A stretch of 64,000 bases of DNA from Chloroflexota bacterium (GTDB lineage Bacteria; Chloroflexota; Dehalococcoidia; JACVQG01; JAHKAY01). Numbering within the stretch: the stretch's first letter is position 1; the number at the start of each line of letters is the position of its first letter. The notes beneath the pieces were generated by a model that saw only the letters and a program-made list of their open reading frames with translations, searched no databases and was not told where the DNA came from. Location: assembly GCA_018825785.1 (NCBI GenBank), contig JAHKAY010000007.1, positions 35,033 to 99,032 of the forward strand. The letters are read 5' to 3'. Shown here one piece after another: positions 3,945 through 35,160 of the stretch. The position numbers were made by a program, and so were the translations under genes.

Positions 3945-3945
3945 T

Positions 3946-4680: not shown

Positions 4681-4686
4681 CTCTTC

Positions 4687-14036: not shown

Positions 14037-16562
14037 CTAGCGCAGGCGGATGAGGGTGGTATCCCGGCCGAAGATGAGGGCCAGGAGCCAGTCCAGCAGG
14101 ACTCGGGTGCGCACATAAACGCTGGGGACCAGCAACAGGTAGCTCACCAGCCACAGAAAGCGGGCGGGCAGGCCAAAGAGGCGAAGGCCCAGGAGTTCCA
14201 TCCCCGCCCCCCGACTGCCCAGGGAGACCGTCTCTGCCATCCAGGGGACAGGGCAGGGGCGCTTCCTGCCCCCGAAGAGGTCGGCCAGGATATTACGCGC
14301 CACAACCCGGGGCTGGCGGACGGCGATGTGGGCCCGGGTGGGGAGGGGAGAACCTGTGGCCGGGTTAATAAAAGAGGCATTATCCCCCAGGGCATAGACA
14401 CCGGGGAAACCCGGCACCTCCAGGTAGCGGTTGACCTTCACCCGCCCCAGAGAGTCTTTCTCCACAGGCAGGGCCTCCACCACCGGGCTGGCCCGGACCC
14501 CCGCCGTCCACACCAGGGTGCGGGTGGATATTATCTCCTCGCCATTTATCTCCACAGCCCCAGGCAGGACCCGGGTGACCTTTGAGCCCAGCCAGACTTC
14601 AATCCCCTTCTTCCTCAGCACCTGGAGGGCGTAGGCAGCCAGGCTGGGATGCATGTCCTCCAGAAGGCGGTCCTGGTTCTGGACAAGAAGGAGACGGACC
14701 TTCTTCGGGTCCACCCTGGGGTAATTTTTCAGGAGAAAACGGAAGATGAAGTCCCTCATCTCGGCGATGAACTGGACCCCGGTGGCCCCACCCCCGGCCA
14801 CGGCAAAGGTCAAGAGTCCCCCCCCTCCCGGATTAGCATCCGCCTCCTCAAAAAGGGAGATGAGATGGTTCCTGATGACCATGCCGTCGTTGAGAGTCTT
14901 GAGGGTGAAGACATGGGGGGCGGTGGCGGGGAGCTGGCGGGTATCGGTAACGCTCCCCAGGGCCAGAACCAGGTAGTCATATGGCAAAAGCCCCCGGTCG
15001 GTGCGGACCATCTTCTTCTCCAGGTCCACGGCCTCCACCTCCGCCCGGATGAAGGAGAAACGTCTCTTGCCCCGCAGGCTGCGGATGGGGTAGGCGATGT
15101 GACGGGTCTCAATGCCCCCCGTAGCTACCTCATGGAGAAGTGGGGTGAAGAGGAAAAAGTTCTCCCGGCTCACCAGAGTAATGTCCACGGGCTGTTTTCC
15201 CAAGGCCCCTTCCAGGTGGAGGGCAGTATATACCCCACCGAAGCCTCCCCCCAGGATGAGGACCCGGCAAGGGCCCAGCCTTCTCCCCCGGAGCTTCTCC
15301 CTCAAGGCCTGAAGGCTGAGACGGGGGATAAAGGAGGGCCTCAAGGTGGTCCCCAGGATTTCCCTGTAGCTATAGCTCCCGGTGAACATCCCCCACATCA
15401 CCCGGTGGTAGGGCCTGGGACCGGGGCGGGGGCTCCCCTCCCCCACCAGCCGGGCGTGGGCCATGAAAAAGCTACGGGAGTCCTTGAGCCGGGAGTGGAG
15501 GGAGAAAAGGAGACGGCCATAGCTATTGTCCCGCTGGATGGCCTGGATGAAAGGCAGGTAGTGCCGGGCAAAGGCCCAGGCCGTGGTGCCATAGTGGACG
15601 GCAGTATGGGCCGCCTGGCGAGCGGTGAGGAGGGCAGAGCCGATACCGTCTTTGTAGAGCCGGGTGGCGGCGGCATCCCCTACCGCCACAAAGCCTTCCC
15701 CCACCGGGTTACGGGCCAGGCCCACCGAGATAAGGGGGCGGCAACCGCAGGCCTGCTCATAGGGGAAGGGCAGGGCCTCCTTCACCAGAGGGTGCGAGAG
15801 GAACTCCTTCACCGAGGGGGGGCCCTTCCTGCCCAGGAGGGAGACATTGATGAAGGGGCCCTTGGGGACGAGGGTGCCGAAGACCAGGTCGGAGTGGGGG
15901 AAGAGAAAGACCCTCACCCTGCCCTCAAAGGCTTCCTGGACATCCTCCTTTCGGGCCCGCAGCTCATCCTGGGCCATGCGATGGGTTCGGGGGGGCTGGT
16001 AGGCCAGTCCTTCCCCGGAGAGGGGCAAAGAGTTAACCCCGGTGGCCAGGACCACCAGGTCATATTCTACCCACTCCCCTAACACCTCCGCTGCCGGGCG
16101 GGGATGAAGGCGCAGGGCCCCAACCCGATAGGGCAACACCCAGGCACCCCAGCTTTTCGCCACCCCCAGGAGATAGCTATCAAAGCTGACACTGGGATGG
16201 AGGGGAAAGCGCAGGGGCCCCGAACCCCGATAGACACTGTATATCTCCCCCCCCGGAGAAGGGGTTTGAATCTCCATGTAATCATAGGGGCTTTGAAGGG
16301 CATAGGTAGAAATGCGGGCCTGGATAACCTCCGGGGGGACCTCCAGGCCCAGTTCCCCAATATTCCGCAGGAGGGAGAGGGAGAGGATGCCGGCACAGCG
16401 GTTGCACCCCCTGGGCCCGGCCAGGCCGAAGTCCCGGGGCTCATAAATATGGACCTCCGGGGTCAGGCCCCGCTCCCGGGCAAAGTGGATGAGGTAGAGG
16501 GCGAAGAAGCTCCCCGCCGGCCCCCCACCGATAACCGCCACCCGAGAAAGCTGACCGGCCAT
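14037..16562 (-). CDS. Fusion protein: N-terminal FAD-dependent oxidoreductase (geranylgeranyl-reductase/FixC-like) + C-terminal type-II NADH:quinone oxidoreductase (NDH-2) with hydrophobic tail
   Basis: N-terminus VAVIGGGPAGSFFALYL (FAD dinucleotide fold) and ...GFVAVGDAAATRLYKDGIG. Residues ~430-841: VLILGGGFGGVYTALHL...FLFTPLLHEVATG...YALGDNASF are hallmark NDH-2 motifs. The C-terminus has hydrophobic helices. Single 841-aa ORF. Confidence 0.7.
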   Translation of the reverse strand: MAGQLSRVAVIGGGPAGSFFALYLIHFARERGLTPEVHIYEPRDFGLAGPRGCNRCAGILSLSLLRNIGELGLEVPPEVIQARISTYALQSPYDYMEIQTPSPGGEIYSVYRGSGPLRFPLHPSVSFDSYLLGVAKSWGAWVLPYRVGALRLHPRPAAEVLGEWVEYDLVVLATGVNSLPLSGEGLAYQPPRTHRMAQDELRARKEDVQEAFEGRVRVFLFPHSDLVFGTLVPKGPFINVSLLGRKGPPSVKEFLSHPLVKEALPFPYEQACGCRPLISVGLARNPVGEGFVAVGDAAATRLYKDGIGSALLTARQAAHTAVHYGTTAWAFARHYLPFIQAIQRDNSYGRLLFSLHSRLKDSRSFFMAHARLVGEGSPRPGPRPYHRVMWGMFTGSYSYREILGTTLRPSFIPRLSLQALREKLRGRRLGPCRVLILGGGFGGVYTALHLEGALGKQPVDITLVSRENFFLFTPLLHEVATGGIETRHIAYPIRSLRGKRRFSFIRAEVEAVDLEKKMVRTDRGLLPYDYLVLALGSVTDTRQLPATAPHVFTLKTLNDGMVIRNHLISLFEEADANPGGGGLLTFAVAGGGATGVQFIAEMRDFIFRFLLKNYPRVDPKKVRLLLVQNQDRLLEDMHPSLAAYALQVLRKKGIEVWLGSKVTRVLPGAVEINGEEIISTRTLVWTAGVRASPVVEALPVEKDSLGRVKVNRYLEVPGFPGVYALGDNASFINPATGSPLPTRAHIAVRQPRVVARNILADLFGGRKRPCPVPWMAETVSLGSRGAGMELLGLRLFGLPARFLWLVSYLLLVPSVYVRTRVLLDWLLALIFGRDTTLIRLR

Positions 16563-22090: not shown

Positions 22091-22189
22091 CCCTTGCTTT
22101 CGTTGTCACGGAGAGATATAATGTAATCGGTGGACAAAGATGGTGGCGTCTATCATCGGGCGGGAACGCCTTGGCCCAGGAGGCCGCAC

Positions 22190-23968
22190 ATGAAGAGTCT
22201 AGCGAAGTGGGCAGGTTTCACCTCTATTGGCCTGCTCTTTCTGCTCCTGATTTACTCAGTTGTTCACACGGGTGCTCCAACGAGCCCTTCGAGCCCTCCC
22301 GGGCTTGCCGAAGCCGAAGTGCCCGCGCCGGTTCCAGGAGACGAAGCGCCTACGCCGGTTATATCTGACGTTTCTGAACGGCGCTCCTTTATGTATCCAG
22401 AGGGCGTAACTACATCGGCTGGTGGCGCAATTTGGATTACCGCTACCAATAATGAAGTTGTCAGGTTGCGCTCAGATAACCCTGACGTAGAGCTAAGGTT
22501 CGGCTCTCAGGGCTCGGGTGATGGCCAGTTCAACAGCCCGTTTGGCATTGTCGTTGATTCTTCGGGCGATGTCTACGTTGCAGACACTTCCAATCATCGC
22601 ATCCAGAAGTTCACCAGTTCAGGGGGGTTCATCACCAAGTGGGGCTCTCCAGGTTCCGGTGACGGTGAGGGCCAGCCCGCCTACCCGTGGAGCATCGCGG
22701 TTGACCCATCGGGCAATGTCTATGTTGCCGACGTTTTCAGTCATCAAATTCAGAAGTTGACCAGTTCGATGGAGCCCATCACCAAGTGGGGCTCTTTGGG
22801 TTCTGGTGACGGCGAGCTCAACGATCCGCGTGCCGTCGCGGTTGATTCTTCGGGCAACGTCTACATCGCGGATAGTTCCAATAATCGCATCCAGAAGTTC
22901 ACCAGTTCAGGGGAGTTCATCACCAAATGGGGCTCCGCGGGTTCCGGTAGTGGCCAGTTCAACCTTCCAGCGGGTTTGGCGGTTGATTCTTCGGGCAATG
23001 TGTATGTTGCCGATACTTTCAACAATCGCATCCAGAAGTTCACCAGTTCAGGGGAGTTCATCACCAAGTGGGGTTCTAGGGGTTCTGGTGACGGCGAGCT
23101 CAACGGTCCGCGTGGCATGGCGGTTGATTCTTCGGGCAATATCTACGCTACGGATACTTCCAATAATCGCATACAGAAGTTCACCAGTTCAGGGGAGTTC
23201 ATCACCAAGTGGGGCTCTACGGGTTCTGGTGACGGCCAGTTCATAGGCCCGTTCGGCGTTGCAGTTGATTCCTCCGACAATATCTATGTTGCCGAGGTGA
23301 GCAATAATCGCATTCAGAAGTTCACCAGTTCAGGGGGGTTCATCACCAAGTGGGGCTCTCCGGGTTCCAGTGACGGCCAGTTCAGGGGCGCAACGGGCGT
23401 GGCGGTTGATGCCTCCGGCAATGTCTATGTTGCCGACTATTTGAATAATCGCATCCAGAAGTTCACCAGTTCAGGGGGGTTCATCACCAAGCGGGGTTCT
23501 TATGGCAGCAGGGAGGGCGAGCTCAACCACCCAATGGGCTTGGCGGTTGATGCCTCAGGCAATGTCTATGTTGCCGATAGGGAGAATCATCGCATACAGA
23601 AGTTCACCAGTTCAGGGGAGTTCATCGCCAAGTGGGGTTCTATGGGTGAGGGTGACGGCGAGTTCAACCATCCAATGGGCGTTGCGGTTGATGCCTCCGG
23701 CAATGTCTATGTTGCCGATAGCTGCAATAATCGCATCCAGAAGTTCACCAGTTCAGGGGGGTTCATCGCCATCTGGGGCTCCACGGGTTTTGATTACGCC
23801 CAGTTCCTGAATCCACGGGGCGTGGCGATTGATGCCTCCGGCAATGTCTATGTTGCCGATTGGGAAAATAGGCGCGTCCAGGAGTTCACCAGTTCAGGGG
23901 TGTTCATCACCCAGTGGGGCACCCCGTTCACTATTAGCGAACTCTATAGCCTAGGTCTAATCCAGTAA
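22190..23968 (+). CDS. Secreted NHL-repeat beta-propeller protein (~11 repeats)
   Basis: ATG at 22190 after AGGAGG; signal/TM segment; repeated unit NNRIQKFTSSGEFITKWGS.GSGDGQF..P.GVAVDSSGNVYVAD is a typical NHL repeat. Confidence 0.8.
   Translation: MKSLAKWAGFTSIGLLFLLLIYSVVHTGAPTSPSSPPGLAEAEVPAPVPGDEAPTPVISDVSERRSFMYPEGVTTSAGGAIWITATNNEVVRLRSDNPDVELRFGSQGSGDGQFNSPFGIVVDSSGDVYVADTSNHRIQKFTSSGGFITKWGSPGSGDGEGQPAYPWSIAVDPSGNVYVADVFSHQIQKLTSSMEPITKWGSLGSGDGELNDPRAVAVDSSGNVYIADSSNNRIQKFTSSGEFITKWGSAGSGSGQFNLPAGLAVDSSGNVYVADTFNNRIQKFTSSGEFITKWGSRGSGDGELNGPRGMAVDSSGNIYATDTSNNRIQKFTSSGEFITKWGSTGSGDGQFIGPFGVAVDSSDNIYVAEVSNNRIQKFTSSGGFITKWGSPGSSDGQFRGATGVAVDASGNVYVADYLNNRIQKFTSSGGFITKRGSYGSREGELNHPMGLAVDASGNVYVADRENHRIQKFTSSGEFIAKWGSMGEGDGEFNHPMGVAVDASGNVYVADSCNNRIQKFTSSGGFIAIWGSTGFDYAQFLNPRGVAIDASGNVYVADWENRRVQEFTSSGVFITQWGTPFTISELYSLGLIQ
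22560..23900 (+). repeat. Approximately 126-bp in-frame tandem repeats (NHL repeat units) with high DNA-level identity
   Basis: Recurrent strings such as aatcgcatccagaagttcaccagttcagggg(a/g)gttcatcaccaagtggggctct at roughly 126-bp spacing. Confidence 0.8.
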
Positions 23969-24011
23969 CATGAGCTCGGCGGGCGTCGCACGGGCGAAAA
24001 AGGAGAGTGAA

Positions 24012-25550
24012 ATGCGCCGGACACTATTGCGAACTGCGTTTACATTGGCCTTGTTCCTCTCGATGGTGACGTGTGGAGCACCCCAAGCTACCCCAACCCC
24101 TGCTGTGTCACCTGCGCCAACCCCCACTTCTGCACCCGGACCAATCACAGTTCCTAAAGCTGTCGCAATCCCCGTAAGCGTCGTCTGGGCCCGCCAGTTC
24201 GGCACACCGGATGAAGACCGCGCCCAGGGCGTGGCGCTGGACAGCGCACGGAACATCTACATCGCGGGCGATACCCTTGGTAGCCTGCCAGGCCAGACCT
24301 CAGCGGGGAGCTGGGATACCTTCGTGCGCAAGTATGACCCCAATGGCAAGGAGATATGGACCCGCCAGTTCGGCACACCGGATGAAGACCGCGCCCAGGG
24401 CGTGGCGCTGGACAGCGCAGGGAACTTCTACATTGTGGGCGAGACAGGTGGGAGCCTGCCGGGGCAGGCATCGGCAGGCAAGTCGGACGCCTTTGTGCGC
24501 AAGTATGACCCCAATGGCAAGGAGATATGGACCCGCCAGTTCGGCACATCCGATGTAGACACGGCCGCGGGTGTGGCGGTGGACAGCGCAGGGAACATCT
24601 ACATCGTGGGCGAGACAGGTGGGAGCCTGCCGGGGCAGGCATCGGCAGGCAAGTCGGACGCCTTCGTGCGCAAGTATGACCCCAATGGCAAGGAGATATG
24701 GACCCGCCAGTTCGGCACATCCGATGTGGACACGGCCGCGGGTGTGGCGGTGGACAGCACAGGGAACTTCTACATTGTGGGCGATACCCTTGGTAGCCTG
24801 CCAGGCCAGACCTCAGCGGGCAGCTACGACGCCTTCGTGCGCAAGTATGACCCCAATGGCAAGGAGATATGGACCCGCCAGTTCGGCACACCGCTCCCCG
24901 ATGTAGACACGGCCACGGGTGTAGCGGTGGACAGCACAGGGAACGTCTACATCGCGGGCACTGTGTATGGGAGCCTGCCCCGGCAGGCCGCGTTGGGCAT
25001 GTGGGATGCCTTTGTGCGCAAGTATGACCCTGATGGCAAGGAGATATGGACCCGCCAGTTCGGCAGCTCGGTCACGGATAATGCCCGGGGCGTGGCGCTG
25101 GACAGCGCAGGGAACATCTACATCGCGGGCGATACAAATGGGACCCTGCGGGGGCAGGCCTCGGCGGGGAAAACGGACGCTATTCTGCTTCTGGCAGGAA
25201 CGAGTCCTGCTCCGAGTGTGCCTCTGGATCCTTCGGACACAACAGCGCCTGTGGTTACCTGGGTCGGGTATTTCGGACGCGAATGGGAAACTGCAAGCAT
25301 TGCTTGGAAGACCAACGAGCCAACTATCGGCCGAGTAGAATATTGCATATGGAATGGCCCGACCCCCGAATATGAGATGATTACTGATTGGACTGAGGAG
25401 CCAGATACCACCGGCGCTGTTACCCTGACAGAGCTTGAATGGTGGGTCACGTATCAGTACAGAGTGAGGGTGAAAGACGCTGGAGGAAACGAAGCAGTAT
25501 CCGAAAATAAGAGTTTCTACACTTACATCCACGGATTCGTGAACCCCTAG
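24012..25550 (+). CDS. Secreted lipoprotein with ~7 SBBP-type beta-propeller repeats and a C-terminal FN3/PAP-N-like domain
   Basis: ATG 24012 after AAAGGAGAG; lipobox LSMVTCG; repeated ~60-aa unit WTRQFGT.D.D.A.GVA.DS.GN.YI.G.T.GSLPGQ.SAG..DAFVRKYDPNGKEI; C-terminal WNGPTPEYEM...YQYRVRVKDAGGNE. Confidence 0.75.
   Translation: MRRTLLRTAFTLALFLSMVTCGAPQATPTPAVSPAPTPTSAPGPITVPKAVAIPVSVVWARQFGTPDEDRAQGVALDSARNIYIAGDTLGSLPGQTSAGSWDTFVRKYDPNGKEIWTRQFGTPDEDRAQGVALDSAGNFYIVGETGGSLPGQASAGKSDAFVRKYDPNGKEIWTRQFGTSDVDTAAGVAVDSAGNIYIVGETGGSLPGQASAGKSDAFVRKYDPNGKEIWTRQFGTSDVDTAAGVAVDSTGNFYIVGDTLGSLPGQTSAGSYDAFVRKYDPNGKEIWTRQFGTPLPDVDTATGVAVDSTGNVYIAGTVYGSLPRQAALGMWDAFVRKYDPDGKEIWTRQFGSSVTDNARGVALDSAGNIYIAGDTNGTLRGQASAGKTDAILLLAGTSPAPSVPLDPSDTTAPVVTWVGYFGREWETASIAWKTNEPTIGRVEYCIWNGPTPEYEMITDWTEEPDTTGAVTLTELEWWVTYQYRVRVKDAGGNEAVSENKSFYTYIHGFVNP
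24170..25150 (+). repeat. Approximately 180-bp in-frame tandem repeats (SBBP units), several copies near-identical at DNA level
   Basis: For example gtgcgcaagtatgaccccaatggcaaggagatatggacccgccagttcggcaca recurs 6 times. Confidence 0.8.
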
Positions 25551-25737: not shown

Positions 25738-26094
25738 TCAGCGAAGCCGCAGGAGCGCGTAGAGCAGCAGGGTCAGGGATACCCCTGCCACACCGGCCAT
25801 CAGGTCATTGAAAGACGAGGACCGATAGGGGAGGAGCTTCTGGGCAGCCTCTGAGGACACTGCCAGGAAAAGCCCGAATATCAGCCCGAACAGGATTCGC
25901 ATTCTCATGGGTTTAAGGAAGTCGGCGCTATAGGCTGCCACGAGGCCGGTAATCCCAAAAAGACCAAAATGGGCAACCTTATCCCAGTGGCTGAAGGCTC
26001 CAGCGGTGGGCAAGCCAACATCTCCGACAGGGCCAAGGAGCAGCCCGAGAAGGAAGAGAGTCCACAGGCCAAGGAGGACCATCTTTCGTTTCAT
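25738..26094 (-). CDS. VanZ-like family membrane protein
   Basis: MKRKMVLLGLWTLFLLGLLLGP...WDKVAHFGLFGITGLV...; ATG at 26094 overlaps the metF stop (ATGA). The track ORF has a spurious 71-codon 5' extension. Confidence 0.65.
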   Translation of the reverse strand: MKRKMVLLGLWTLFLLGLLLGPVGDVGLPTAGAFSHWDKVAHFGLFGITGLVAAYSADFLKPMRMRILFGLIFGLFLAVSSEAAQKLLPYRSSSFNDLMAGVAGVSLTLLLYALLRLR

Positions 26095-27020
26095 GAGGGC
26101 CTGACTTCTGGCCGGGGGTAGAGGCCGGACTTTTCCACCAGAGTGGGGACTGCTTCCTCCTCCCAGCCCACCGCCATGATGTGGATTCCGTGGACGCCGG
26201 GGACCTGCCTTAGCTGCTCTATGTCCTCCAGGGCAATCTCTATCCCCTCCTCCTTGGCGACCTTGGCCCCCTTCATCCGCTCCACAACCTGGTCGGGCAC
26301 AAAGCACCCAGGGACGGAGCTCTGCATATATCGGGCCATACCTGCCGAACGGAGGGGGATGATGCCCGCCAGGATATGGACCTGTTTGTCCAGGCCCCTC
26401 TCCCGGACCATCTCCATAAACCGGGCGAACTTGGGTATATTGTAGACCGCCTGGGTCTGGATGAACTGGGCCCCCGCCTTCACCTTTTTGGCCAGGCGGA
26501 CCGCCCTGAACTCAAAGGGGTCGGCGAAGGGGTTCTCCGCCGCCCCGATGAATATGGGCACCTCCCCCGAGATGTCATCGCCGCAGAGGAACTTTTTCTC
26601 GTCCCGCATCTTCTTGAGGGCAGCGATGAGCTGGATGGAGTCCAGGTCAAAGACATTCTTGGCCGTGGGGTGGTTGCCGAACATCTGGTGGTCCCCGCTA
26701 AGGCAGAGGAAGTTGCGGATGCCCAGGGCTATGGCCCCCAGGACATCGCTCTGGATGGCGATGCGGTTCCTGTCCCGGCAGACAATCTGCATAACCGTCT
26801 CCACTCCCACCTGGCGGAGGAGGGCACACCCCGCCAGGCTGGAGAGGCGGACGATGGCGGTCTGGTTATCGGTGACATTCAGGGCATCGCAGTAGTCCTT
26901 TAGGCGGGTGCCCTTCCTGGTGACCAGGACGGGGTCGGTCCCCTTGGGCGGGCCCACCTCAGAGGTGACGGCGAATTGCCCCGCCTCCAGCACCCGTTGG
27001 AGCCTGCTTACAGGTTCCAT
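26091..27020 (-). CDS. metF: Methylenetetrahydrofolate reductase (MetF; MTHFR catalytic subunit)
   Basis: 309 aa matching the MTHFR fold. Followed by a metV-like gene, as in MetFV-type MTHFRs. Confidence 0.8.
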   Translation of the reverse strand: MEPVSRLQRVLEAGQFAVTSEVGPPKGTDPVLVTRKGTRLKDYCDALNVTDNQTAIVRLSSLAGCALLRQVGVETVMQIVCRDRNRIAIQSDVLGAIALGIRNFLCLSGDHQMFGNHPTAKNVFDLDSIQLIAALKKMRDEKKFLCGDDISGEVPIFIGAAENPFADPFEFRAVRLAKKVKAGAQFIQTQAVYNIPKFARFMEMVRERGLDKQVHILAGIIPLRSAGMARYMQSSVPGCFVPDQVVERMKGAKVAKEEGIEIALEDIEQLRQVPGVHGIHIMAVGWEEEAVPTLVEKSGLYPRPEVRPS

Positions 27021-27021
27021 C

Positions 27022-27699
27022 CTATTTCTCCTTCAGTTGCAGGTCCTGCCGGACGAAGCTCCGGGGGCCCAGGGCTTCGTTGGACTTCCAGTCCCGGACA
27101 GGTATCAGCTCCTCCAGGCTGGCCAGCTGGCCCAAGCGGGCCAGCCTATCGTATATCATCTGCCAGATGCAGGGGATGTCGGGGGAAATTTCACAGTGGC
27201 CCTCGCAGGAGCCGCCGCAGGGGCCATTGAAGAGGTGCTTGGCACAGCGGGCGATGGGGCAGAGACCGCCGGTGAGGTGGATGATGCAGTCCCCGCAGGC
27301 CACGCACCTTTCAGCGAAGACCCCCAGCTCCCGGGGGAGGCCCAGGAACATGGTATCATTGCCGGGGAGAACCGGCTTCTCGGGGAACATCTCGGCCACA
27401 AAATTCATCCCCACGCCGCAGGCCAGAGAGAGGACCGCGTCATGGCCCTGGATTAGCTCCCGGGCCTCCTCCACAAATTCCCTCTCGCACTGCCGCTTCA
27501 CCACAAATTCCCCGAGCTCTTTTTGCTGACCGTTGAGCCGGCTTTGCAGGCGGAGGGTGGAGGCCAGGGTGGCCACCTCCTTTTCTCCCCCAGCCAGGCA
27601 GATTGCAGAGCAAGTATTGCAGCCCAGTACCAGGACCCGGGAGAAGGGGGCAACCATCGGGGCGATATCCTTCATGGGCTTCTGACGGGCCTTTATCAT
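27022..27699 (-). CDS. metV: MTHFR C-terminal-domain protein MetV (Cys-rich Fe-S/zinc subunit)
   Basis: 225 aa, Cys-rich (CNTCSAICLAGG..., CVACGDCIIHLTGGLCPIARC..., CGGSCEGHC). 1-nt gap to metF. Confidence 0.75.
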   Translation of the reverse strand: MIKARQKPMKDIAPMVAPFSRVLVLGCNTCSAICLAGGEKEVATLASTLRLQSRLNGQQKELGEFVVKRQCEREFVEEARELIQGHDAVLSLACGVGMNFVAEMFPEKPVLPGNDTMFLGLPRELGVFAERCVACGDCIIHLTGGLCPIARCAKHLFNGPCGGSCEGHCEISPDIPCIWQMIYDRLARLGQLASLEELIPVRDWKSNEALGPRSFVRQDLQLKEK

Positions 27700-29678
27700 G
27701 CGGCCTCCTTGGCAGATGGTGCCAGGAACTCCGACAGGTGGGCAAACTCTTGCGGAGCAAGCTGCAGGAGCCTCACGACCCCCTCACCCAGCCCCGCCCC
27801 CTGGAGGAGCCTGTTGGCAGTCTCTACCCGGCACTGGGCCCAGCGGAGGGTCCGCTGGTAGGGGCAGTCGGCATCAGCACAGCCAATCAGCGTTATCCGT
27901 TCCGCCCCCAACTCTGCCGCCTGAAGGAGGTGCCTAACATCAATCTTTCCCAGGCAGGGCACAGGTACCATGCCGGAGGTATCAGCGCCCTGGAGGAAGA
28001 CGGTGTCATAGCTGCAAAAGAAGACCGTTTCTTTTCTTCCCCCCTTCATGGCTGCCCGGACCCTCCGGGGGATGTCCTCCACCCCTGGCATGCGGAAGGC
28101 GATGGCCCCGGCAGGGCACTCACTGACACAGATACCGCAGGCCTGGCACTGGTCCACCCGTATATCCACCTTGCCTGCTGCCCGGACCACGGGGACCCCG
28201 TAGGGGCAGACCCGCACGCAGGTGAGGCAGGCGACGCACTTCTCCTCCCGGAGCTCGGCACCATTGCCGCAGTTCAAACAGCGGCGGCCCTCCCGGGCCC
28301 CAACCTGAGGGCTATAGCCCAGGTCCACCAGCTCAAAGGAGGTTATCCTCCGCCCCCCTTCTGAGAGGGGCAAGGGGTGTCTTTCTACCCTCTCTATGTC
28401 TTCCACCACCTCCGGGGCCAGAGCGCCCAGGGCTGAAGGCTCCTGGAAGGTGAATTTATCCCCGCGGAGGTAGGCATCCACGGCCAGGGCAGCCCGGCGG
28501 CCGTGGGCCATGGCCCGCACAGCCGAGCCGGGCCCCAGCACGGTCTCGCCGCAGGCAAAGACACCCTCCCTGCCGGTGGCCATGGTCTGGGGGTCAAAGA
28601 CGAGCTGCCCTCTATCGTTCAGAGGGATGCCCAGCTTGGGCAGCATACCGATATCTGGGGCCTGGCCGATGGCCAGGATGATGATGTCCCCCTCCATCAG
28701 GGTGCAGCGGTCTTCGTAGAAGGAAGGGTTGAACCTCCCATGCTCATCAAAGACCGCCTTCACGGCCATGCAGTTTATCACTGCCACCTTGCCGTTGCGG
28801 CGGATAATCTCCTTGGGACCCCAAGAGCAATTGATTTCGATGCCCTCCTCCTGGGCCTCGGCTATCTCCCAGGGAGAGGCGGGCATCTCATGCGCAGCTT
28901 CCAGGCAGACCATGATGACGGTCTTGGCCCCTGCCCGCAGGGCGCTGCGGGCGGCATCCACGGCCACATTCCCCCCCCCGATGACAATGACCTTTTTCCC
29001 GGGGGGCAGGCGGTGGCCCTCAAGGTTTACGGCTCTGAGGAAGGGCAGAGCCAAGAGCACCCCTTCCCCCTCCTCCCCCGGGATGCGCAGCTTGCGGCTC
29101 AGGGGAAGGCCCAGGCTGAGGACGACGGCCCGGAAGCCCTGGTGCTTCAACTGCTCCAGTGTAATATCCCGGCCCAGGGCCTTGTCGGTCTGGATATCCA
29201 CCCCCAGGGCCCGGATGGCCTCTATATCTCTCTTCACCAGCTCCCGTGGCAGGCGGTAGAGTGGGACGAAGTAGGCCATCGCTCCCCCTGGCATGGCCTC
29301 CCGCTCAAAGATGGTGACGGGGTAGCCCATGCGGGCCAGGTCATGGCCGGCAGTGAGGCCCGCCGGGCCCGCGCCAATGACCGCGACCTTCTCCGGGTGA
29401 GAGGGGGTGGGGGCGGGGACTGCCCCCGGCCTGCCCTGCTCCATAGCCACCCTCTTGAGGGCCCGGATAGACAGGGGCTGGTCCGCCTGCCCCCGGCGGC
29501 ACTTCTCCTCGCAGGGGTGGGCGCAGATGGTAGCGCAGACAAAGGGCAGGGGATTGGTCTCCAGGACTATCTCCGCCGCCCGGTCGAAGTCCCCGGTGGC
29601 AACAGCTGCCAGGTAACCTCGAGCGTCCTGGTGGACGGGACAGGCATTCTGGCAGGGGGGCTGGACCATCGGCCTCAT
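27696..29678 (-). CDS. Multidomain oxidoreductase: GltD/NfnB-like NAD(P)H-binding FAD protein + 2x[4Fe-4S] ferredoxin + MvhD-like C-terminal domain
   Basis: ATG at 29678 overlaps the MBL gene stop (ATGA). N-terminal CQNACPVHQDARGYL...CATICAHPCEEKC (GltD N-terminal Fe-S), VAVIGAGPAGLTAGHDLARMG and VIVIGGGNVAVDAARSA (two Rossmann folds), then CVACLTCVRVCPYG and CQACGICVSECP, and a C-terminal FFCSYDT...ITLIGCADADCPYQ MvhD-like domain. The track ORF has a spurious 107-codon 5' extension. Confidence 0.7.
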   Translation of the reverse strand: MRPMVQPPCQNACPVHQDARGYLAAVATGDFDRAAEIVLETNPLPFVCATICAHPCEEKCRRGQADQPLSIRALKRVAMEQGRPGAVPAPTPSHPEKVAVIGAGPAGLTAGHDLARMGYPVTIFEREAMPGGAMAYFVPLYRLPRELVKRDIEAIRALGVDIQTDKALGRDITLEQLKHQGFRAVVLSLGLPLSRKLRIPGEEGEGVLLALPFLRAVNLEGHRLPPGKKVIVIGGGNVAVDAARSALRAGAKTVIMVCLEAAHEMPASPWEIAEAQEEGIEINCSWGPKEIIRRNGKVAVINCMAVKAVFDEHGRFNPSFYEDRCTLMEGDIIILAIGQAPDIGMLPKLGIPLNDRGQLVFDPQTMATGREGVFACGETVLGPGSAVRAMAHGRRAALAVDAYLRGDKFTFQEPSALGALAPEVVEDIERVERHPLPLSEGGRRITSFELVDLGYSPQVGAREGRRCLNCGNGAELREEKCVACLTCVRVCPYGVPVVRAAGKVDIRVDQCQACGICVSECPAGAIAFRMPGVEDIPRRVRAAMKGGRKETVFFCSYDTVFLQGADTSGMVPVPCLGKIDVRHLLQAAELGAERITLIGCADADCPYQRTLRWAQCRVETANRLLQGAGLGEGVVRLLQLAPQEFAHLSEFLAPSAKEAA

Positions 29679-30322
29679 CAGAGGGCCGGCTCCAGGACAA
29701 CAATCTCCTGGGCCGGGGGGAGCTGGTCTGCCTTGAGCTCTACCTCGCTCCCATTCACCTGCCGCACCCGAGGCTTGCCCTGAAGGAAAGGCTCTACCCC
29801 GGCAATGGACCAGCCGAGCCTGGGCGTCTTGTAGTGCATGGGGATGACCACCCCTGGGCCTAGCTGGTCCACCACCCCGCTGGCCCCTTTGGCATCCATG
29901 GTATAGAAACCCCCCACCGGGATAAAGAGGACGTCCACTTTTCCTATCTGTTTGGCCTCGGCATCGGTGAGGGGGCGGCCCAGGTCCCCCAGGTGGCACA
30001 CCCGCAACTCGTCCAGGGTGAAGCAGAAGACGGTATTTTCCCCCCGCTCCCGCCCCCCTTTCTCGTCGTGGTGGGTGGGGAGGCCCATGAACTCAATGCC
30101 TTTGGCCTCTTTCGTGCCCGGCCCCTTCACTGCCTCCGCCCCGGCCACTGCTTTGGCGTTGTTGTGGTCAAGGTGGTCGTGGGTAATGATGACCACATCG
30201 GCCGATTCCTTTATTGGGCCGTAGAAGAGTCCCCCCATAGCGCCATAGGGGTCGGTGATGACCCTGGGGCCCTTCTCCGAGGTAATAAGAAAGCAGGCAT
30301 GTCCCAGCCACTTGACCTTCAA
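29678..30322 (-). CDS. MBL-fold metallo-hydrolase
   Basis: MKVKWLGHACFLI...VIITHDHLDHNNA (HxHxDH). Confidence 0.75.
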   Translation of the reverse strand: MKVKWLGHACFLITSEKGPRVITDPYGAMGGLFYGPIKESADVVIITHDHLDHNNAKAVAGAEAVKGPGTKEAKGIEFMGLPTHHDEKGGRERGENTVFCFTLDELRVCHLGDLGRPLTDAEAKQIGKVDVLFIPVGGFYTMDAKGASGVVDQLGPGVVIPMHYKTPRLGWSIAGVEPFLQGKPRVRQVNGSEVELKADQLPPAQEIVVLEPAL

Positions 30323-30396
30323 ACCTTTTCTCCTTTCTTTTCCAGCTACGGGGCCATGGCGTTCAACCTGGGGGCATCCACCTCAGGCCCTGGGGC

Positions 30397-30639
30397 TCAT
30401 GGGTAGACCTGGTGGCCCCGGTCGTCCAGGAGGATGATAGCATTCTGGGTACAGCCCTTGGCGGCCCGCAGCAGGGTGTGGTCATCGGCGTTGAGGGGGT
30501 CCATCACCACGGCCCTGCCCTCCTTATCCAGTTCAAAGACCTCGGGGACCACCCCGATGCAGTTGGCGAGCCCGGTACACCGCTCCCGCAGGACGATAAT
30601 CTTCATTCTGCTATTGTATTCCCGGCTCCCGGCCCACAC
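30397..30639 (-). CDS. Small single-cluster ferredoxin
   Basis: 80 aa. MKIIVLRERCTGLANCIGVVPEVFELDKEGRAVV...GCTQNAI is the ferredoxin (Fer4_13/15-type) pattern. Confidence 0.6.
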   Translation of the reverse strand: MWAGSREYNSRMKIIVLRERCTGLANCIGVVPEVFELDKEGRAVVMDPLNADDHTLLRAAKGCTQNAIILLDDRGHQVYP

Positions 30640-30785: not shown

Positions 30786-31175
30786 CTATCGCTTCGTGAG
30801 GGGGCGACCTTTTGCGTCTTTCAAGCTATTGGTGGCAATCAGAATAAGGTCAATCAACCACCAGACCCAGCCGGCAATACCGAGGGTTACCACAGCGATG
30901 AAAAGCTTCAGAATGCCAAGCCCCACATAGCCCAGATAGAATCGGTCAACAGCGATGTACCCCAAGAAGATGGAAAGCAGCAGGGCCGTTAGCCAGTCCT
31001 TCTCTCCAGCTGCCGGCCCAAGGCGCGTGCCACACTTAACGCAGACTTCGGCCTTCAGGTCGGTTTCGGCCCCGCAGTTCTGGCAGAATCTGTCTCCCCT
31101 TGGGGGCCTGACACCGCAGGCAACACAGAGTTCCGCCTGTACGGGTATCTCTTTTCCGCAGTTTCGACAGTACAT
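30786..31175 (-). CDS. Zinc-ribbon + TM2-domain membrane protein
   Basis: MYCRNCGKEIP...CVACG...CQNCGA...CVKCG (two zinc ribbons), then the TM2 motif GYIAVDRFYLGYVGLGILKL. Confidence 0.7.
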   Translation of the reverse strand: MYCRNCGKEIPVQAELCVACGVRPPRGDRFCQNCGAETDLKAEVCVKCGTRLGPAAGEKDWLTALLLSIFLGYIAVDRFYLGYVGLGILKLFIAVVTLGIAGWVWWLIDLILIATNSLKDAKGRPLTKR

Positions 31176-31184
31176 ATCTCCTCC

Positions 31185-32693
31185 TTAGCCTGCTTGCCCT
31201 CCGCTGATGCCCAGGGCCAAGTTTACCACGGTGCGTACACCCACACCAGTGCCCCCCTTTACCTGGTAGCCCCGGTCCCTCTCCGCCCTTGAGGGGCCAG
31301 CGATGTCCAGGTGGACCCAGGGGGTCTCCCCGGCGAACTCCTGGAGGAAGAGGGCGGCGGTGATGGCCCCACCCCAGCGGCCCCCGGTGTTCTTGATATC
31401 GGCCACGTCGCTCTTGTTCTGCTCTTTGTATTCCTCATCGATGGGCATGGGCCAGTGGCGTTCCCCCGCCTCCTTCCCAGCCTTGACTACCTTGTCCAGC
31501 AGCTCCTGGTTGTTGGAGAAGGCCCCGGAATAGAAGTCCCCCAGGGCCACATGGCAGGAGCCGGTGAGGGTGGCCAGGTCCACCAGCGGCTTCAGGCCCA
31601 GCTTATTGGCATAGGCCAGGGCGTCGGCCAGGATGAGCCGGCCCTCGGCGTCGGTGGAGATGACCTCAACGGTCTTCTGGCCAAAGATGCGGATGATGTC
31701 CCCCGGCTTCATGGCGGAACCGCTGGGGAGGTTTTCGGTGGCGGGGATGAGGGCGGTGACATTGATGGGGGGCTTGAGCTGGGCGATAGCCCCCATGGCG
31801 GCGATGACCGCCGCCCCCCCGGCCATGTCGCCCTTCATCTCCGCCATCCCCTCCGAGGGCTTGATGGAGATGCCCCCGGAGTCAAAGGTAATCGCCTTAC
31901 CCACCAGGCCCAGGGCTGGTTCTGACGGGGGACCCCCTTTGTATTCCAGGATGATGAGCTTGGGGGGCTGGCTGGACCCCTGGGCCACCCCCAGGATGCC
32001 CCCCATGCCCAGGGCCTCCATCTCTGCCCTCTCCAGCACCCGGAAGCCGAGGCCCCGGGCCTCGGCCACCTTCCTGGCGGCCTCGGCCATGGCGGAGGGG
32101 GTGAGGAAATTGGCGGGCTGATTGACCATGTCCCGGGCCTGATTGGTGGCCTCGGCCAGAATCCGCCCAGTCCGCACCCCTTCTTCCAGTTGGGGGAGCC
32201 TCTTTTCATCCCTCTCCACCAGGAGGAGCTCCTTCATCTCCCTGCCCTCAGGCTTTGTCTGGTGCTGGGTGAAGGTGTAAAGGCCCAAGATGGCCCCTTC
32301 GGCCACAGCCTGGGCGGCCTGGCGGGGCTCCATGCCTCCTATTCCAGCCCCAAAGGTGATGGTGGCCGCCCTCGCCACCCCGGTCCTTCTCAATGCCCGG
32401 AGGCCCTCGGCCACGCAGCCCCTGGCCCGGTCCAGGTTGAAAGCCTCTTTCTTGCCCAACCCCACCACCGCTACCCTTTTGGGGGGGATTTTGCCCAGGG
32501 TATGGATGAGGGTTACCTCGCCCAGCTTGCCCTTGACCTCCCCTTCCTGGATGAGCTGGGTGATGGCACCGCCCAGGGCTTGGTCCACCGACCCTGTGGC
32601 CCCGGAGGGCTTATCCACCCCCTCAAACAGGTTCACCAGGACGGCGTCCACAGCCACCTGGGTGATATCGCCGGAGACCACCTTGATTTCCAT
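31185..32693 (-). CDS. pepA: Leucyl aminopeptidase (M17 family)
   Basis: NTDAEGRL signature (STDAEGRLILADALAYA); GKAITFDSGGISIKP. Confidence 0.9.
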   Translation of the reverse strand: MEIKVVSGDITQVAVDAVLVNLFEGVDKPSGATGSVDQALGGAITQLIQEGEVKGKLGEVTLIHTLGKIPPKRVAVVGLGKKEAFNLDRARGCVAEGLRALRRTGVARAATITFGAGIGGMEPRQAAQAVAEGAILGLYTFTQHQTKPEGREMKELLLVERDEKRLPQLEEGVRTGRILAEATNQARDMVNQPANFLTPSAMAEAARKVAEARGLGFRVLERAEMEALGMGGILGVAQGSSQPPKLIILEYKGGPPSEPALGLVGKAITFDSGGISIKPSEGMAEMKGDMAGGAAVIAAMGAIAQLKPPINVTALIPATENLPSGSAMKPGDIIRIFGQKTVEVISTDAEGRLILADALAYANKLGLKPLVDLATLTGSCHVALGDFYSGAFSNNQELLDKVVKAGKEAGERHWPMPIDEEYKEQNKSDVADIKNTGGRWGGAITAALFLQEFAGETPWVHLDIAGPSRAERDRGYQVKGGTGVGVRTVVNLALGISGGQAG

Positions 32694-32696
32694 GTT

Positions 32697-34580
32697 TCAC
32701 TTCCCTTCCATCAGGGGGACTACCCAGTCAACCCCCAGTTCTTCCAGCTTGGCCCGAGAGGGGCGACCTTCCGGCCAGCCCATCATCCGGTAGTAGGTCT
32801 CTTTGGCCTCTGAAAAGGCCTTTCCCTCTATGCCCATCCCCTTGAGGGGGCCGGAGGGGTGGGGGGTGAGAAAGCGACGGGGCAGGACATCATCGGCCGG
32901 GGAGAAGCCCTCCCGCCGGTTGAAGGCCTGGGCCATGTTCAGGGCCCTCTCCCCCACCTTCATCAGTTCCCACACCGAGGTGTTCCAGCCGGTAACGGCC
33001 CGGACCAGCTCGGCCACTCTCTCAAGCCCCACAAGGCCGTAGACGATGACAAAATAGCAGGTGACGGCGCAGTTCAGAAAATGCACCCAGAAAGTGTAGT
33101 AGATAAGGAGGCGGACCTTGGCCGGGGAGAGGTCGGTGAGGGGGAGGGGCTCCAGGATGCCCAGGGCCTTCATGTCCTCAAGGTAAGGGCTCTTGCCCGT
33201 GAAGTTGGAGTCGTGCATGTTGTGGCAGTGGTCCGCCCCGGTGGGCGACATTATGTAGCCCAGGCCCATCCCCTGCTTGTAGCGGGGCTCATGCATGGGG
33301 ACCTCCTGCCCCTTGATGTGGAGGGCCAGCTCCTGGGCGGGGGGGGCGAGCTTCTTGGCGGCCCGGGCTACCCCTTCGGCCAGGATATCCCCCAGGCCCT
33401 GACGGAGGGCAATCCTCTCCACCATCTCCAGCATGGCCCGGCTGTTGCCGAAGCGGAGCTCCAGGCCCCCGGTGTCACGGGAAGTGAGCAGGCCCCGCTC
33501 AAAGCACTCCATGGCAAAGGCGATGGTGGCGCCAGTGGAGATGCTGTCCAGTCCATAGCCGTTGGCCAGCTCACCCCCCTTGGCGATGGCCTTCAGGTCA
33601 TCAACCCCGCAGTTGGAGCCCAGGGCGGCGATGGTCTCGTATTCCGGCCCACCATAGCGGGGGTCAACCTGATAGGGCTCCTCCACCTTGACCTCCCGCT
33701 TGCACTGGACGGGGCAGGCATAGCAGCTCCTCCTGTTCCCTGTCTGGATGGTGTCCCTCATGGCCTCCCCGCTAATCCTCCCCGCCCCCTCAAAAGAGCC
33801 GGCCTGGAAGTTGCGGGTGGGCAGGCCCCCCCGGCGGCTGAGGCCCCTCACGGAAGAGGCCGTGCCCAGGTCCCTTATGTCCTGGTTGTTCACCGGGGCG
33901 TTGTCCCTCACCCAGCGGGCGATGCCGGCCACCCCCTGGGGGTCGGCCAGGGCCAGCTTCTGGTGCCCCCGGACGGCAATGGCCTTGAGGTTCTTGGAGC
34001 CCATCACCGCCCCCATCCCGGTCCGCCCCGCTGCGGCATCCAGGTCGTTGATGATACAGGCAAAGCGCACGAGGTTCTCACCGGCGGGTCCTATCTGGAC
34101 TACCTTAACACCCCCATCCCCCAGCTCCCCACGGATGGCCTCCTGGCATTCCAGGGTCTTCAGCCCCCAGAGGTGACGGGCGTCCTTTATCTGGGCCTGG
34201 CCCTCCTGGACAAGGATATAAACGGGCTTCTCTGCCCTCCCCTCCACGATGATGGCGTCAAAGCCGGCGAACTTCAGCTCTGCCCCCCAGTAGCCCCCCG
34301 CCTCAGCCTCCCCGAAGGCCCCGGTGAGGGGTGACTTACCCCCCACGCTGTGGCGGCCGGAGCCCCCCACGGGCGCGCCCGTCAGGGGCCCGGCGGCGAA
34401 GATGAGCCTGTTCCGGGGGCCCAAGGCGTCCACCCGGGGGGGCAGGTCCCTGAGGAGATAGTAGCCAACAAAGCCTTCCCCGCCGAAATACTGGCGGTAG
34501 AAGTTGTCGGAAGGCTCCTCGATGGCTATCCTTCCCGAGGAGAGGTCAACCCGCAGGACTCTGCCGATATATCCTGGCAC
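32697..34580 (-). CDS. aor: Aldehyde:ferredoxin oxidoreductase (tungsten-containing AOR family)
   Basis: 627 aa. MPGYIGRVLRVDLSSGRIAIEEP...YFGGEGFVGYYL is the AOR N-terminal domain. Full-length colinearity with AOR family proteins. Confidence 0.85.
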   Translation of the reverse strand: MPGYIGRVLRVDLSSGRIAIEEPSDNFYRQYFGGEGFVGYYLLRDLPPRVDALGPRNRLIFAAGPLTGAPVGGSGRHSVGGKSPLTGAFGEAEAGGYWGAELKFAGFDAIIVEGRAEKPVYILVQEGQAQIKDARHLWGLKTLECQEAIRGELGDGGVKVVQIGPAGENLVRFACIINDLDAAAGRTGMGAVMGSKNLKAIAVRGHQKLALADPQGVAGIARWVRDNAPVNNQDIRDLGTASSVRGLSRRGGLPTRNFQAGSFEGAGRISGEAMRDTIQTGNRRSCYACPVQCKREVKVEEPYQVDPRYGGPEYETIAALGSNCGVDDLKAIAKGGELANGYGLDSISTGATIAFAMECFERGLLTSRDTGGLELRFGNSRAMLEMVERIALRQGLGDILAEGVARAAKKLAPPAQELALHIKGQEVPMHEPRYKQGMGLGYIMSPTGADHCHNMHDSNFTGKSPYLEDMKALGILEPLPLTDLSPAKVRLLIYYTFWVHFLNCAVTCYFVIVYGLVGLERVAELVRAVTGWNTSVWELMKVGERALNMAQAFNRREGFSPADDVLPRRFLTPHPSGPLKGMGIEGKAFSEAKETYYRMMGWPEGRPSRAKLEELGVDWVVPLMEGK

Positions 34581-34584
34581 GGTA

Positions 34585-35160
34585 CTAACGGGTGGCCTCT
34601 CGGACTATCTTCTCCAGCACCGGGGAGACATCCCGGGAGGTGTCCACGACAAAATGGCGGCGGGCTATCTTTTCCCTCGTTTCCTTCATCCTCTGATAGA
34701 CCTGCCAGTCGGCATCGGAGGGGGTCTGGTCAGCGGCCTTTCGGGCTTCCAGGCGGGCCTGGACCAGGGTGGGTGGGGCCTCCACCCAGACCAGGATGAG
34801 CCGGGCCCCCCGCCTCTCCGCAATATGGTAGAGGTATTCCCTGTTCCTCTCGGAAGTATTGGTGGCATCCAGGATAACCGGGATGTTCTTGCCCAGGAGC
34901 TCATCTATCAGGCGGTGGATGAGGCTGAAGAGATAAGAGCTCTCCTCGGCCGAGTAGGTAGGCCGGGGCAAGAGCGTTTTCCTCAGGGCATCGCTCTCCA
35001 CCACCACGGCGGGGAGACGCCGATATAGCTGGTGACAGAGATGGCTCTTACCGGTGCCGGGCAGGCCGGAGAGGACGATGAAGGGCGGTTCCACCACAGG
35101 CTCAGGGAGGGGTCCCAGGCTTGCCCGGAGCCGCCCCAGGTCCTGGGCGAGGTTGTCCAT
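34585..35160 (-). CDS. P-loop kinase / AAA_33-family ATPase
   Basis: IVLSGLPGTGKSHLCHQLYRRL Walker A; 191 aa. Confidence 0.55.
   Translation of the reverse strand: MDNLAQDLGRLRASLGPLPEPVVEPPFIVLSGLPGTGKSHLCHQLYRRLPAVVVESDALRKTLLPRPTYSAEESSYLFSLIHRLIDELLGKNIPVILDATNTSERNREYLYHIAERRGARLILVWVEAPPTLVQARLEARKAADQTPSDADWQVYQRMKETREKIARRHFVVDTSRDVSPVLEKIVREATR

Follow-up and report, generated by a model that had tools for sequence, protein, structure and literature searches.

What delivers the electrons to a MetVF-type methylene-tetrahydrofolate (methylene-THF) reductase when its metV gene is directly preceded by a gene for one polypeptide in which a GltD-type flavin module, a ferredoxin domain and an MvhD domain are fused? 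The question is raised by a locus on a 64,000-nucleotide stretch of a Chloroflexota genome (assembly GCA_018825785.1, contig JAHKAY010000007.1, positions 35,033 to 99,032), here called the window, and it matters since electron supply to methylene-THF reduction sets the energy balance of the Wood-Ljungdahl pathway and is debated for MetVF-type enzymes (PMC8760232). These enzymes lack an NAD(P)H site, and a separate subunit for electron input is added in other lineages; depending on the lineage, MetVF is paired with RnfC2, with HdrCBA plus MvhD, or with nothing beyond ferredoxin, and the published classification distinguishes four types, namely MetF alone, MetVF, MetVF+RnfC2 and MetVF+HdrCBA+MvhD (PMC8760232). 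A GltD-ferredoxin-MvhD subunit is found in none of the four (PMC8760232). We lean towards reading the locus as a linear, non-bifurcating NADH:methylene-THF reductase of three subunits, a fifth wiring of MetVF, in which the 660-residue fusion protein would act as the electron-input subunit.

The domain composition of the fusion protein was resolved with Pfam, NCBIfam and a custom profile, and the coordinates are collected in Table 1. A cluster-binding helical domain (residues 7-82), which matches only positions 29-107 of the Fer4_20 profile, carries the invariant cysteines C9, C13, C48, C52, C56 and C60 together with an L74-K75-R76 motif. It is followed by FAD and NAD(P)H Rossmann domains, by a short element discussed below, and by a ferredoxin domain (residues 475-527) in which eight out of eight cysteines are invariant and which is predicted to carry 2 x [4Fe-4S]. 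At the C-terminus, the match to the FlpD/MvhD family PF02662 (E=1e-13) scored 51.7 bits vs a gathering cut-off of 22.3, and a profile built from the C-terminal 125 residues of 12 family members matched six solved MvhD chains (E=7e-28 to 7.5e-25), the best being 5odc_D (E=7e-28, residues 4-127 of 140). A preliminary description of the locus, made from the DNA letters, had proposed exactly this GltD / 2x[4Fe-4S] / MvhD architecture and had named beforehand the C-terminal domain as a point on which it hung; all three kinds of profile bear the architecture out, and judged by the match to 5odc_D the C-terminal domain is truly MvhD-like. Its cysteines C555, C575, C600 and C605 are invariant in alignments of 12 and of 40 sequences and kept in nearly all homologues, and the domain is predicted to be a [2Fe-2S] connector to MetV. 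Residues 474-650 as a whole match the C-terminal end of HdrA2 (NCBIfam NF040770, model positions 572-759 of 777), with HdrA2-type NCBIfam scores far under the family cut-offs. An AlphaFold2 model computed from a 40-member family alignment reached a mean pLDDT of 87 and a pTM of 0.86. An exact-sequence look-up of the 660-residue protein returned no identical record.

Conservation of the gene arrangement was assessed in a one-genome-per-species scan, which returned 80 loci encoding relatives of 36-68% identity; five further loci came from exact-protein look-ups, giving 85 related loci altogether. Among the 74 loci in which 900 nt or more follow the homologue, 68 (92%) have metV directly downstream of the fusion gene on the same strand, with a median gap of -4 nt; the loci belong to Dehalococcoidia, Anaerolineae, Thermoleophilia, Thermodesulfobacteriota, Syntrophorhabdaceae and Phycisphaerae. 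A metF homologue is present downstream in 67/85 loci, usually after metV. The same architecture next to metFV, for which the preliminary description had suggested a search in other genomes, is thus found in several phyla. The order MvhD domain, metV, metF is that of the Moorella cluster mvhD-metV-metF (PMC5736913).

Genes outside this core of three vary by clade. In the window lineage, down to 56% identity, the upstream genes encode an AAA_33 kinase, an aldehyde:ferredoxin oxidoreductase (AOR), peptidase M17 and a metallo-beta-lactamase (MBL)-fold protein. In a large Dehalococcoidales-type clade the core is flanked by genes for a PAS-GAF histidine kinase and a LuxR-type response regulator upstream and a double-receiver protein downstream. 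Loci flanked in this way occur within L018-L079, e.g. L070 (3421-5728 and 9705-10505), L027, L037, L060 and L034 (NADPH-motif clade), and at L008 and L005 a GAF histidine kinase gene sits between metV and metF. Two-component regulators were the only other conserved neighbours of the core, and since histidine kinase and response regulator genes flank it, a dedicated signal control of the module is suggested. No HdrB, HdrC, hydrogenase, NfnA or HydBC-like gene was conserved near the core in the related loci. Because the outer neighbours differ and none of these genes is conserved, the conserved unit is three genes: the fusion gene, metV and metF.

The family is very large. Its best 120 matches to the window protein (identity 46-93%) share one set of three Pfam signatures without exception and come from uncultured organisms, and so do all of the best 120 matches to a representative of the second sequence form described below (LYRR, 78-100% identical); in the group-B search, 7,998 of 8,000 scored candidates reached E<=1e-50, with the full architecture checked for the best 120. 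Homologues are filed in databases as 'FAD-dependent oxidoreductase', 'hypothetical protein', 'formate dehydrogenase beta subunit', 'heterodisulfide reductase subunit A' or 'glutamate synthase beta subunit-like/F420-reducing hydrogenase delta subunit'. The closest relatives are found in metagenome-assembled genomes (MAGs) of Dehalococcoidia and other Chloroflexota from groundwater and marine oxygen-minimum zones.

Whether such an input subunit would bifurcate electrons depends on the kind of GltD module it contains. The best PDB sequence matches to the fusion protein were NfnA of the Bfu-type NfnABC complex (9bov_A, E=4e-94; 9n5u_A) and StnC (8oh5_C), followed at lower rank by NfnB/NfnL of NfnAB and then by GltD and dihydropyrimidine dehydrogenase. 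A Foldseek search with the AlphaFold2 model returned the same ranking, with query-normalised TM-scores of 0.65-0.68 for NfnA/StnC vs 0.54-0.57 for NfnB. The canonical NfnB cluster motif, RCx2Cx4Cx3CPV, is contiguous and N-terminal (PMC6405883); the N-terminus of the fusion protein holds its second half alone (C9-x3-C13-P-V), and the first RCxxC is not there. Because residues 431-470 align to residues 7-45 of 5jca_L (Pyrococcus NfnL) and 5vj7_A (E about 8e-4), the RCxxC element is circularly permuted to a position behind the FAD/NAD domains, as in StnC; residues 387-471 align to 482-567 of 9bov_A and 482-566 of 8oh5_C. R466, C467 and C470 are invariant across the family, and the permuted R466-C467-x2-C470 element, on these alignments, supplies the CxxC ligand pair missing from the N-terminus. 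C467 and C470, taken together with the six invariant cysteines of the helical domain, would suffice as ligands for two GltD-type [4Fe-4S] clusters.

Two further positions bear on the type of the module. Lys75 aligns with StnC K170, where NfnB (4ylf_B, 5jca_L) has Glu, and no homologue among the 85 related loci that contains this region lacks the LKR motif. K170 of StnC is a ligand of the FAD-proximal [4Fe-4S] cluster, strictly conserved and needed for activity, and the Glu-to-Lys change is one of two differences which the authors link to the loss of bifurcation (PMC10482914). Arg142 aligns with StnC R239 and NfnB R187/R201; StnC R239 lies about 6 Angstrom from the flavin N5 without contact, and the StnC FAD has been found experimentally to be non-bifurcating, feeding a linear cluster chain (PMC10482914). 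By these sequence and structural comparisons the GltD module of the fusion protein is of the StnC/NfnA (Bfu) type, not of the bifurcating NfnB type.

The nucleotide site departs from both. In NfnB an Arg-Arg pair binds the 2'-phosphate of NADPH (PMC6405883), and Tyr-Arg-Arg closes the strand that follows the second GxGxxA motif in NfnB, StnC and NfnA. In the fusion protein Val-Cys-Leu-Glu (257-260) replaces YRR, placing Leu-Glu where Arg-Arg is expected; the AlphaFold2 model has the strand at 253-258 and Glu260 just beyond its C-terminal end. An acidic residue at the C-terminal end of strand 2 is the classical mark of NAD-specific Rossmann folds, and V257-C-L-E260 is predicted to be a determinant of NADH preference. 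Among the 85 loci the family has two forms at the 2'-phosphate site, both linked to metVF: xCLE in the window protein, in its relatives with identities as low as about 40%, and in a clade of Bacillota, and LYRR in most Dehalococcoidales-type loci, in Thermoleophilia and in Thermodesulfobacteriota. This suggests NADH as the donor in the window organism and NADPH in the LYRR sister clade, and since just the 2'-phosphate site varies while all else is conserved, it fits a role of the GltD module as the point of nucleotide entry.

From the domains, ligand motifs, structural neighbours and conserved gene linkage we infer a complex of three proteins with a set order of clusters, a preference for NADH and no bifurcation. 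NADH, probably, would be oxidised at the GltD-type FAD of the fusion subunit, from which electrons would leave singly, passing through the two GltD-type [4Fe-4S] clusters, the FAD-proximal one being Lys-ligated, to the HdrA-type ferredoxin domain with its two [4Fe-4S] clusters and from there to the [2Fe-2S] centre of the MvhD part. MetV would take them up on its Fe-S clusters and pass them to the MetF flavin, where methylene-THF would be reduced, giving methyl-THF; the reductase may work in the opposite direction too. No bifurcation would take place at the flavin of the input subunit, and the subunit would be the functional counterpart of RnfC2 in the Acetobacterium woodii enzyme. By descent, it may join an NAD(P)H module of the StnC/NfnA type to the C-terminal ferredoxin-plus-MvhD unit of HdrA2-like proteins.

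In its likely mode of working, the closest match is the Type III enzyme of Acetobacterium woodii, RnfC2-MetV-MetF, in which one added subunit gene with an NADH site and an Fe-S chain likewise adjoins metVF, and which is soluble and non-bifurcating (PMC8760232). The two input subunits are nevertheless different proteins, RnfC2 being an unrelated FMN protein of the RnfC/NuoF type and the protein described here a GltD-type FAD protein with an MvhD domain; Pfam detected no RnfC_N or Complex1_51K domain in the operon. In Type IV, MetFV-HdrABC-MvhD (Moorella thermoacetica, Sporomusa ovata), an MvhD element likewise stands immediately before metV-metF, and the half of the fusion protein made up of the ferredoxin and MvhD domains is similar to the C-terminal part of HdrA2-type HdrA-MvhD fusions. 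Type IV, however, has the thioredoxin-reductase-like FAD domain of HdrA, whereas the flavin module of the fusion protein is GltD-type and only residues 474-650 are HdrA2-like. HdrB and HdrC were absent from the operon, the Pfam-scanned window genes and the related loci, the rest of the genome lying outside the scan.

StnC of the Sporomusa Stn transhydrogenase (8oh5) and NfnA of NfnABC (9bov, 9n5u) have the permuted RCxxC, the Lys and the Arg in common with the fusion protein, but they possess an N-terminal [2Fe-2S] domain and NuoG/FdhF-like domains that the latter lacks. They also dock to a HydBC-like bifurcating module (StnAB/NfnBC), whereas no such genes adjoin the fusion gene in the window, and they bind NADPH via YRR, where the fusion protein has CLE, an MvhD end and the linkage to MetVF. 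With NfnB/NfnL it shares the GltD fold with FAD, the nucleotide site and two [4Fe-4S] clusters, but of the contiguous RCx2Cx4Cx3CPV motif, the Glu ligand, the Arg-Arg pair and the NfnA partner that characterise NfnB (PMC6405883), it has 0/4. An NfnA partner ([2Fe-2S]/FAD, ferredoxin-NADP reductase-like) was found neither in the operon nor in the related loci. DsrL is an iron-sulfur flavoprotein of GltD/NfnB-like kind that has gained a ferredoxin domain at its C-terminus, feeds a specific redox partner and exists in NADH- and NADPH-preferring forms; it is not known to have an MvhD domain, serves the sulfite reductase DsrAB, not MetVF, and is compared here by the shared GltD fold.

Several points weigh against the linear scheme. 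The formation of a complex is read from gene order alone, and the NADH assignment comes from one sequence motif and a general rule for Rossmann folds. Seven Fe-S clusters would be a long wire for a simple, exergonic transfer from NADH to a flavin, and the StnC-like features leave room for bifurcation elsewhere, e.g. at the MetF flavin. Moreover, Bacillota include a clade, about 48% identical and with no motif lost, in which the fusion protein stands alone, with no metVF in cis, and three other loci are also without metV; because the Bacillota clade stands alone, the fusion protein is not exclusively a partner of MetVF, at least in cis. It could then be a general NAD(P)H:acceptor oxidoreductase whose MvhD domain is a plug for some other partner or partners, with the adjacency to metVF reflecting co-regulation or inherited gene order. 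Stand-alone homologues with intact motifs at L009, L010 and L055, in addition to those of Bacillota, speak for such a role, as do the GltD modules fused to varied partners in the same genomes (NuoF at L081, POR at L060, a 1501-residue protein at L073) and the synteny of the whole AOR-M17-MBL-fusion-metVF block in the window lineage. We regard it as rather improbable all the same, since the linkage, at 92% and with stop and start codons that overlap, spans phyla and both nucleotide-motif forms amid wholly different outer neighbours, and since MetVF, lacking an NAD(P)H site, needs an electron donor (PMC8760232).

A bifurcating or confurcating input was the role put forward in the preliminary description. 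The overall reaction would be 2 NAD(P)H + methylene-THF + oxidised ferredoxin giving 2 NAD(P)+ + methyl-THF + reduced ferredoxin, one electron running downhill via MvhD and MetV to MetF and the other uphill via [4Fe-4S] clusters to a ferredoxin docked at the dicluster domain. The GltD fold can bifurcate, as in NfnB (PMC6405883), the fusion protein has both a [2Fe-2S] centre and [4Fe-4S] chains, like NfnAB, and a conserved Arg142 takes the place of the Arg by which NfnB contacts the flavin N5. MvhD is otherwise found in bifurcating Hdr complexes, the Moorella MetFV-HdrABC-MvhD enzyme has been proposed to bifurcate (PMC5861303), and the energetics, taken from textbook potentials, would be roughly balanced (about -320 mV vs -200 and about -450 mV). 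The permuted StnC-type layout with Lys in place of Glu at the FAD-proximal cluster points the other way, as does the StnC precedent, where the equivalent Arg stands off from N5 and the FAD does not bifurcate (PMC10482914). Nor do the loci offer an obvious second acceptor: no HdrBC or other second-acceptor genes are conserved nearby, the small ferredoxin encoded in the window is not conserved, and the ferredoxin-plus-MvhD unit matches the C-terminus of HdrA2 and not a known ferredoxin exit. In the solved Mvh-Hdr complex this part is, as we take it to be, an electron-input wire. From the sequence the proposed bifurcation thus seems unsupported, and we hold it to be unlikely. The more specific form of it, a minimal, HdrBC-independent bifurcating methylene-THF reductase with a single input polypeptide, widespread in subsurface Chloroflexota, is in our estimate a distinctly long shot; if true, it would be the long-postulated energy-saving version of this Wood-Ljungdahl step.

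A last alternative concerns direction only and otherwise equals the linear NADH-linked scheme. The complex might work mainly oxidatively, from methyl-THF to methylene-THF, with the fusion protein as the outlet to NAD+ in an organism that oxidises methyl groups or acetate. MetVF-type enzymes are bidirectional in acetogens and syntrophic acetate oxidisers (PMC6295475, PMC8760232), and the sensor kinases and response regulators flanking many loci suggest a conditional, catabolic use. Oxidation of methyl-THF with NAD+ is, however, endergonic under standard conditions (PMC6295475), no other Wood-Ljungdahl gene was found among the scanned open reading frames (ORFs) of the window, and the housekeeping surroundings fit an anabolic role equally, so that we consider a mainly oxidative function very unlikely.

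A link to hydrogenase through the MvhD domain was also considered, prompted by reports of metF adjoining a [NiFe] hydrogenase in soda-lake Syntrophomonadaceae, and was rejected, the Bacillota homologues having neither metVF nor hydrogenase nearby. At these Bacillota loci (L082, L083, L086, L087, L088, L010) the fusion gene always lies between a pyruvate phosphate dikinase (PPDK) gene, with or without a flavodoxin-like FMN reductase, and dnaG-sigA. In an 86% relative (L081:15559-21986), genes about 2 kb 3' of metF encode a NuoE-like protein, a 1029-residue NuoF-GltD fusion, a NuoG/molybdopterin protein and the small and large subunits of a [NiFe] hydrogenase; the NuoF-GltD fusion is a second, different use of the GltD module in one genome. 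Further large GltD fusions were noted near the reductase locus of two other MAGs: in one of Thermodesulfobacteriota, a 1050-residue protein with a thiamine pyrophosphate (TPP)-enzyme, POR-like part (L060:3-3152, minus strand), and in one of Chloroflexia, a 1501-residue protein whose GltD module is joined by another FAD domain and a ferredoxin domain (L073:5515-10020, plus strand).

Table 1 Genes of the reductase locus and features of the fusion protein, in window coordinates.
Feature	Position	Strand	Basis
Small ferredoxin gene, Fer4_15, three Cys	30397-30606	-	Pfam
MBL-fold gene, Lactamase_B_3, 214 aa	29678-30322	-	E=1e-50
Fusion gene (working label 'GFM'), 660 aa, proposed electron-input subunit	27696-29678	-	Pfam domains
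metV, 225 aa, Fe-S/zinc subunit of MetVF-type reductases	27022-27699	-	PF12225/DUF5981 ('MTHFR C-terminal' family), E=1e-35
metF, 309 aa, catalytic flavin subunit of methylene-THF reductase	26091-27020	-	PF02219, E=7e-38, full-length
VanZ-like membrane protein gene, 118 aa	25738-26094	-	ATG overlaps metF stop
Fusion protein, cluster-binding helical domain, residues 7-82, Fer4_20	29433-29660	-	Pfam; alignments to 9bov, 8oh5, 9n5u, 4ylf, 5jca
Fusion protein, Lys75 codon	29454-29456	-	Aligned with StnC K170
Fusion protein, FAD and NAD(P)H Rossmann domains, residues 98-408	28455-29387	-	Pyr_redox_2 at 98-394, E=8e-30
Fusion protein, V257-C-L-E260, C-terminal end of strand 2 of the NAD(P)H Rossmann fold	28899-28910	-	Alignments
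Fusion protein, permuted element, residues 431-470, ending R466-C467-x2-C470	28269-28388	-	Alignment to NfnL N-terminus
Fusion protein, ferredoxin domain, two CxxCxxCxxxCP motifs (C481-C491, C511-C521)	28095-28259	-	Fer4 dicluster, 475-527
Fusion protein, MvhD/FlpD domain, residues ~548-660	27699-28037	-	PF02662 at 570-653

In the window, six genes on the minus strand occupy positions 25738-30639 in the order ferredoxin, MBL, fusion gene, metV, metF, VanZ-like gene (Table 1). Five of these ORFs had been listed in the preliminary description, and their positions and every domain assignment are borne out, as is the ATGA overlap that it noted between the stop of the fusion gene and the start of metV. 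Only 1 nt separates the metV stop from the metF start, the MBL stop and the fusion-gene start have one base in common (TGATG), and the 74 nt between the ferredoxin and MBL genes are the sole junction that is not tight. As the ATG of the VanZ-like gene overlaps the metF stop (ATGA), this gene is taken as the last of the transcription unit in the window and appears to be translationally coupled to the reductase operon; the relatives L081 and L084 carry other genes after metF. A GTG start at 29999 for the fusion gene was rejected: the 107 extra residues are of low complexity and overlap the MBL gene in another frame, and homologues begin at the position of the ATG. Because the GTG ORF crosses the MBL gene out of frame, the ATG at 29678 is the only sensible start. 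The metF product has distant matches to solved methylene-THF reductases (MTHFRs), and in MetV, for which no structure was found in the PDB, 13 Cys are conserved in 94-100% of 68 sequences.

The MBL-fold protein and the small ferredoxin had been described as following the reductase genes; in the direction of transcription, both precede the fusion gene. Since the MBL stop shares a base with the fusion-gene start, the MBL gene is co-transcribed with it, and in this respect its assignment to the operon holds. A functional part in the system does not follow, as the gene is found upstream of the fusion gene only in close relatives (L001, L002, L004, L081, L084/85) and is absent from that position in the other related loci examined. 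The MBL protein was rejected as a component because its conservation next to the fusion gene, shared with AOR and peptidase M17, is confined to this Dehalococcoidia lineage, and its linkage looks like ordinary lineage synteny. The small ferredoxin fared no better: it has no homologue at any of the 85 related loci, neither at L081 (86% relative) nor in the 56% relative, and was set aside on conservation as lineage- or strain-specific. Its three cysteines (C-x5-C ... C) follow the pattern of single-cluster [3Fe-4S]-type ferredoxins, and its gene is a genome-specific insertion between a TM2/zinc-ribbon gene and the MBL gene.

The wider surroundings are of housekeeping character, with Pfam identifying trp genes, HerA/NurA, PolA, RecA, DnaN, AOR and peptidase M17. 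The 26 larger window ORFs outside the operon that were scanned with Pfam were housekeeping genes or gave no match, and none of them was another Wood-Ljungdahl gene. Between 25500 and 35500, no credible Rfam match to an S-adenosylmethionine (SAM) or tetrahydrofolate (THF) riboswitch, which would suggest an anabolic role, was obtained; an anabolic supply of methyl-THF fits the housekeeping surroundings as well as any role. Upstream of the reductase genes, a block of AAA_33 kinase, tungsten-type AOR, peptidase M17, in part a TM2/zinc-ribbon protein, and MBL genes (window 30786-35160, minus strand; L081:4936-10004; L084:3199-7905) is kept down to 56% identity, and the overlapping or almost contiguous ends of several of its genes suggest that it is transcribed as one long co-directional unit.

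Other features of the window include two adjacent genes on the plus strand for repetitive beta-propeller proteins, one with 10 NHL repeats (22130-23968) and one with 6 SBBP repeats in near-identical units of about 50 residues (23970-25550); both are probably secreted or at the surface, given their N-terminal low-complexity linkers rich in Pro, Ser and Thr. An 841-residue protein (14037-16562, minus strand) that joins a DAO-like FAD motif at the N-terminus to a C-terminal Pyr_redox_2 domain is possibly another fused flavoprotein. HerA and NurA form an archaeal-type pair for DNA end resection, and in this bacterial genome a HerA-like ATPase (DUF87 with HAS barrel) is encoded near a NurA nuclease (1792-5880, minus strand).

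The open-access literature that was searched contains no description of a GltD-ferredoxin-MvhD subunit adjoining metVF, two possibly relevant papers (PMC9430772, PMC10327494) lying outside that search. The locus encodes a MetVF-type reductase whose distinct input subunit is apparently uncharacterised; all of its parts are known modules, and no new principle is involved. The four published wirings all come from Firmicutes acetogens, and the arrangement described here would be a fifth. Chloroflexota dominate many subsurface and sediment communities, and the three-gene arrangement appears to be the common wiring in Dehalococcoidia and other Chloroflexota, in which a StnC-type NAD(P)H module and an MvhD connector would have been reused as parts. 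The scheme predicts that dependence on NADH or NADPH is set by a two-residue motif and that ferredoxin is not needed. A genome-based metabolic model in which the gene goes by 'HdrA', 'glutamate synthase' or 'formate dehydrogenase beta subunit' would give this step the wrong electron carrier.

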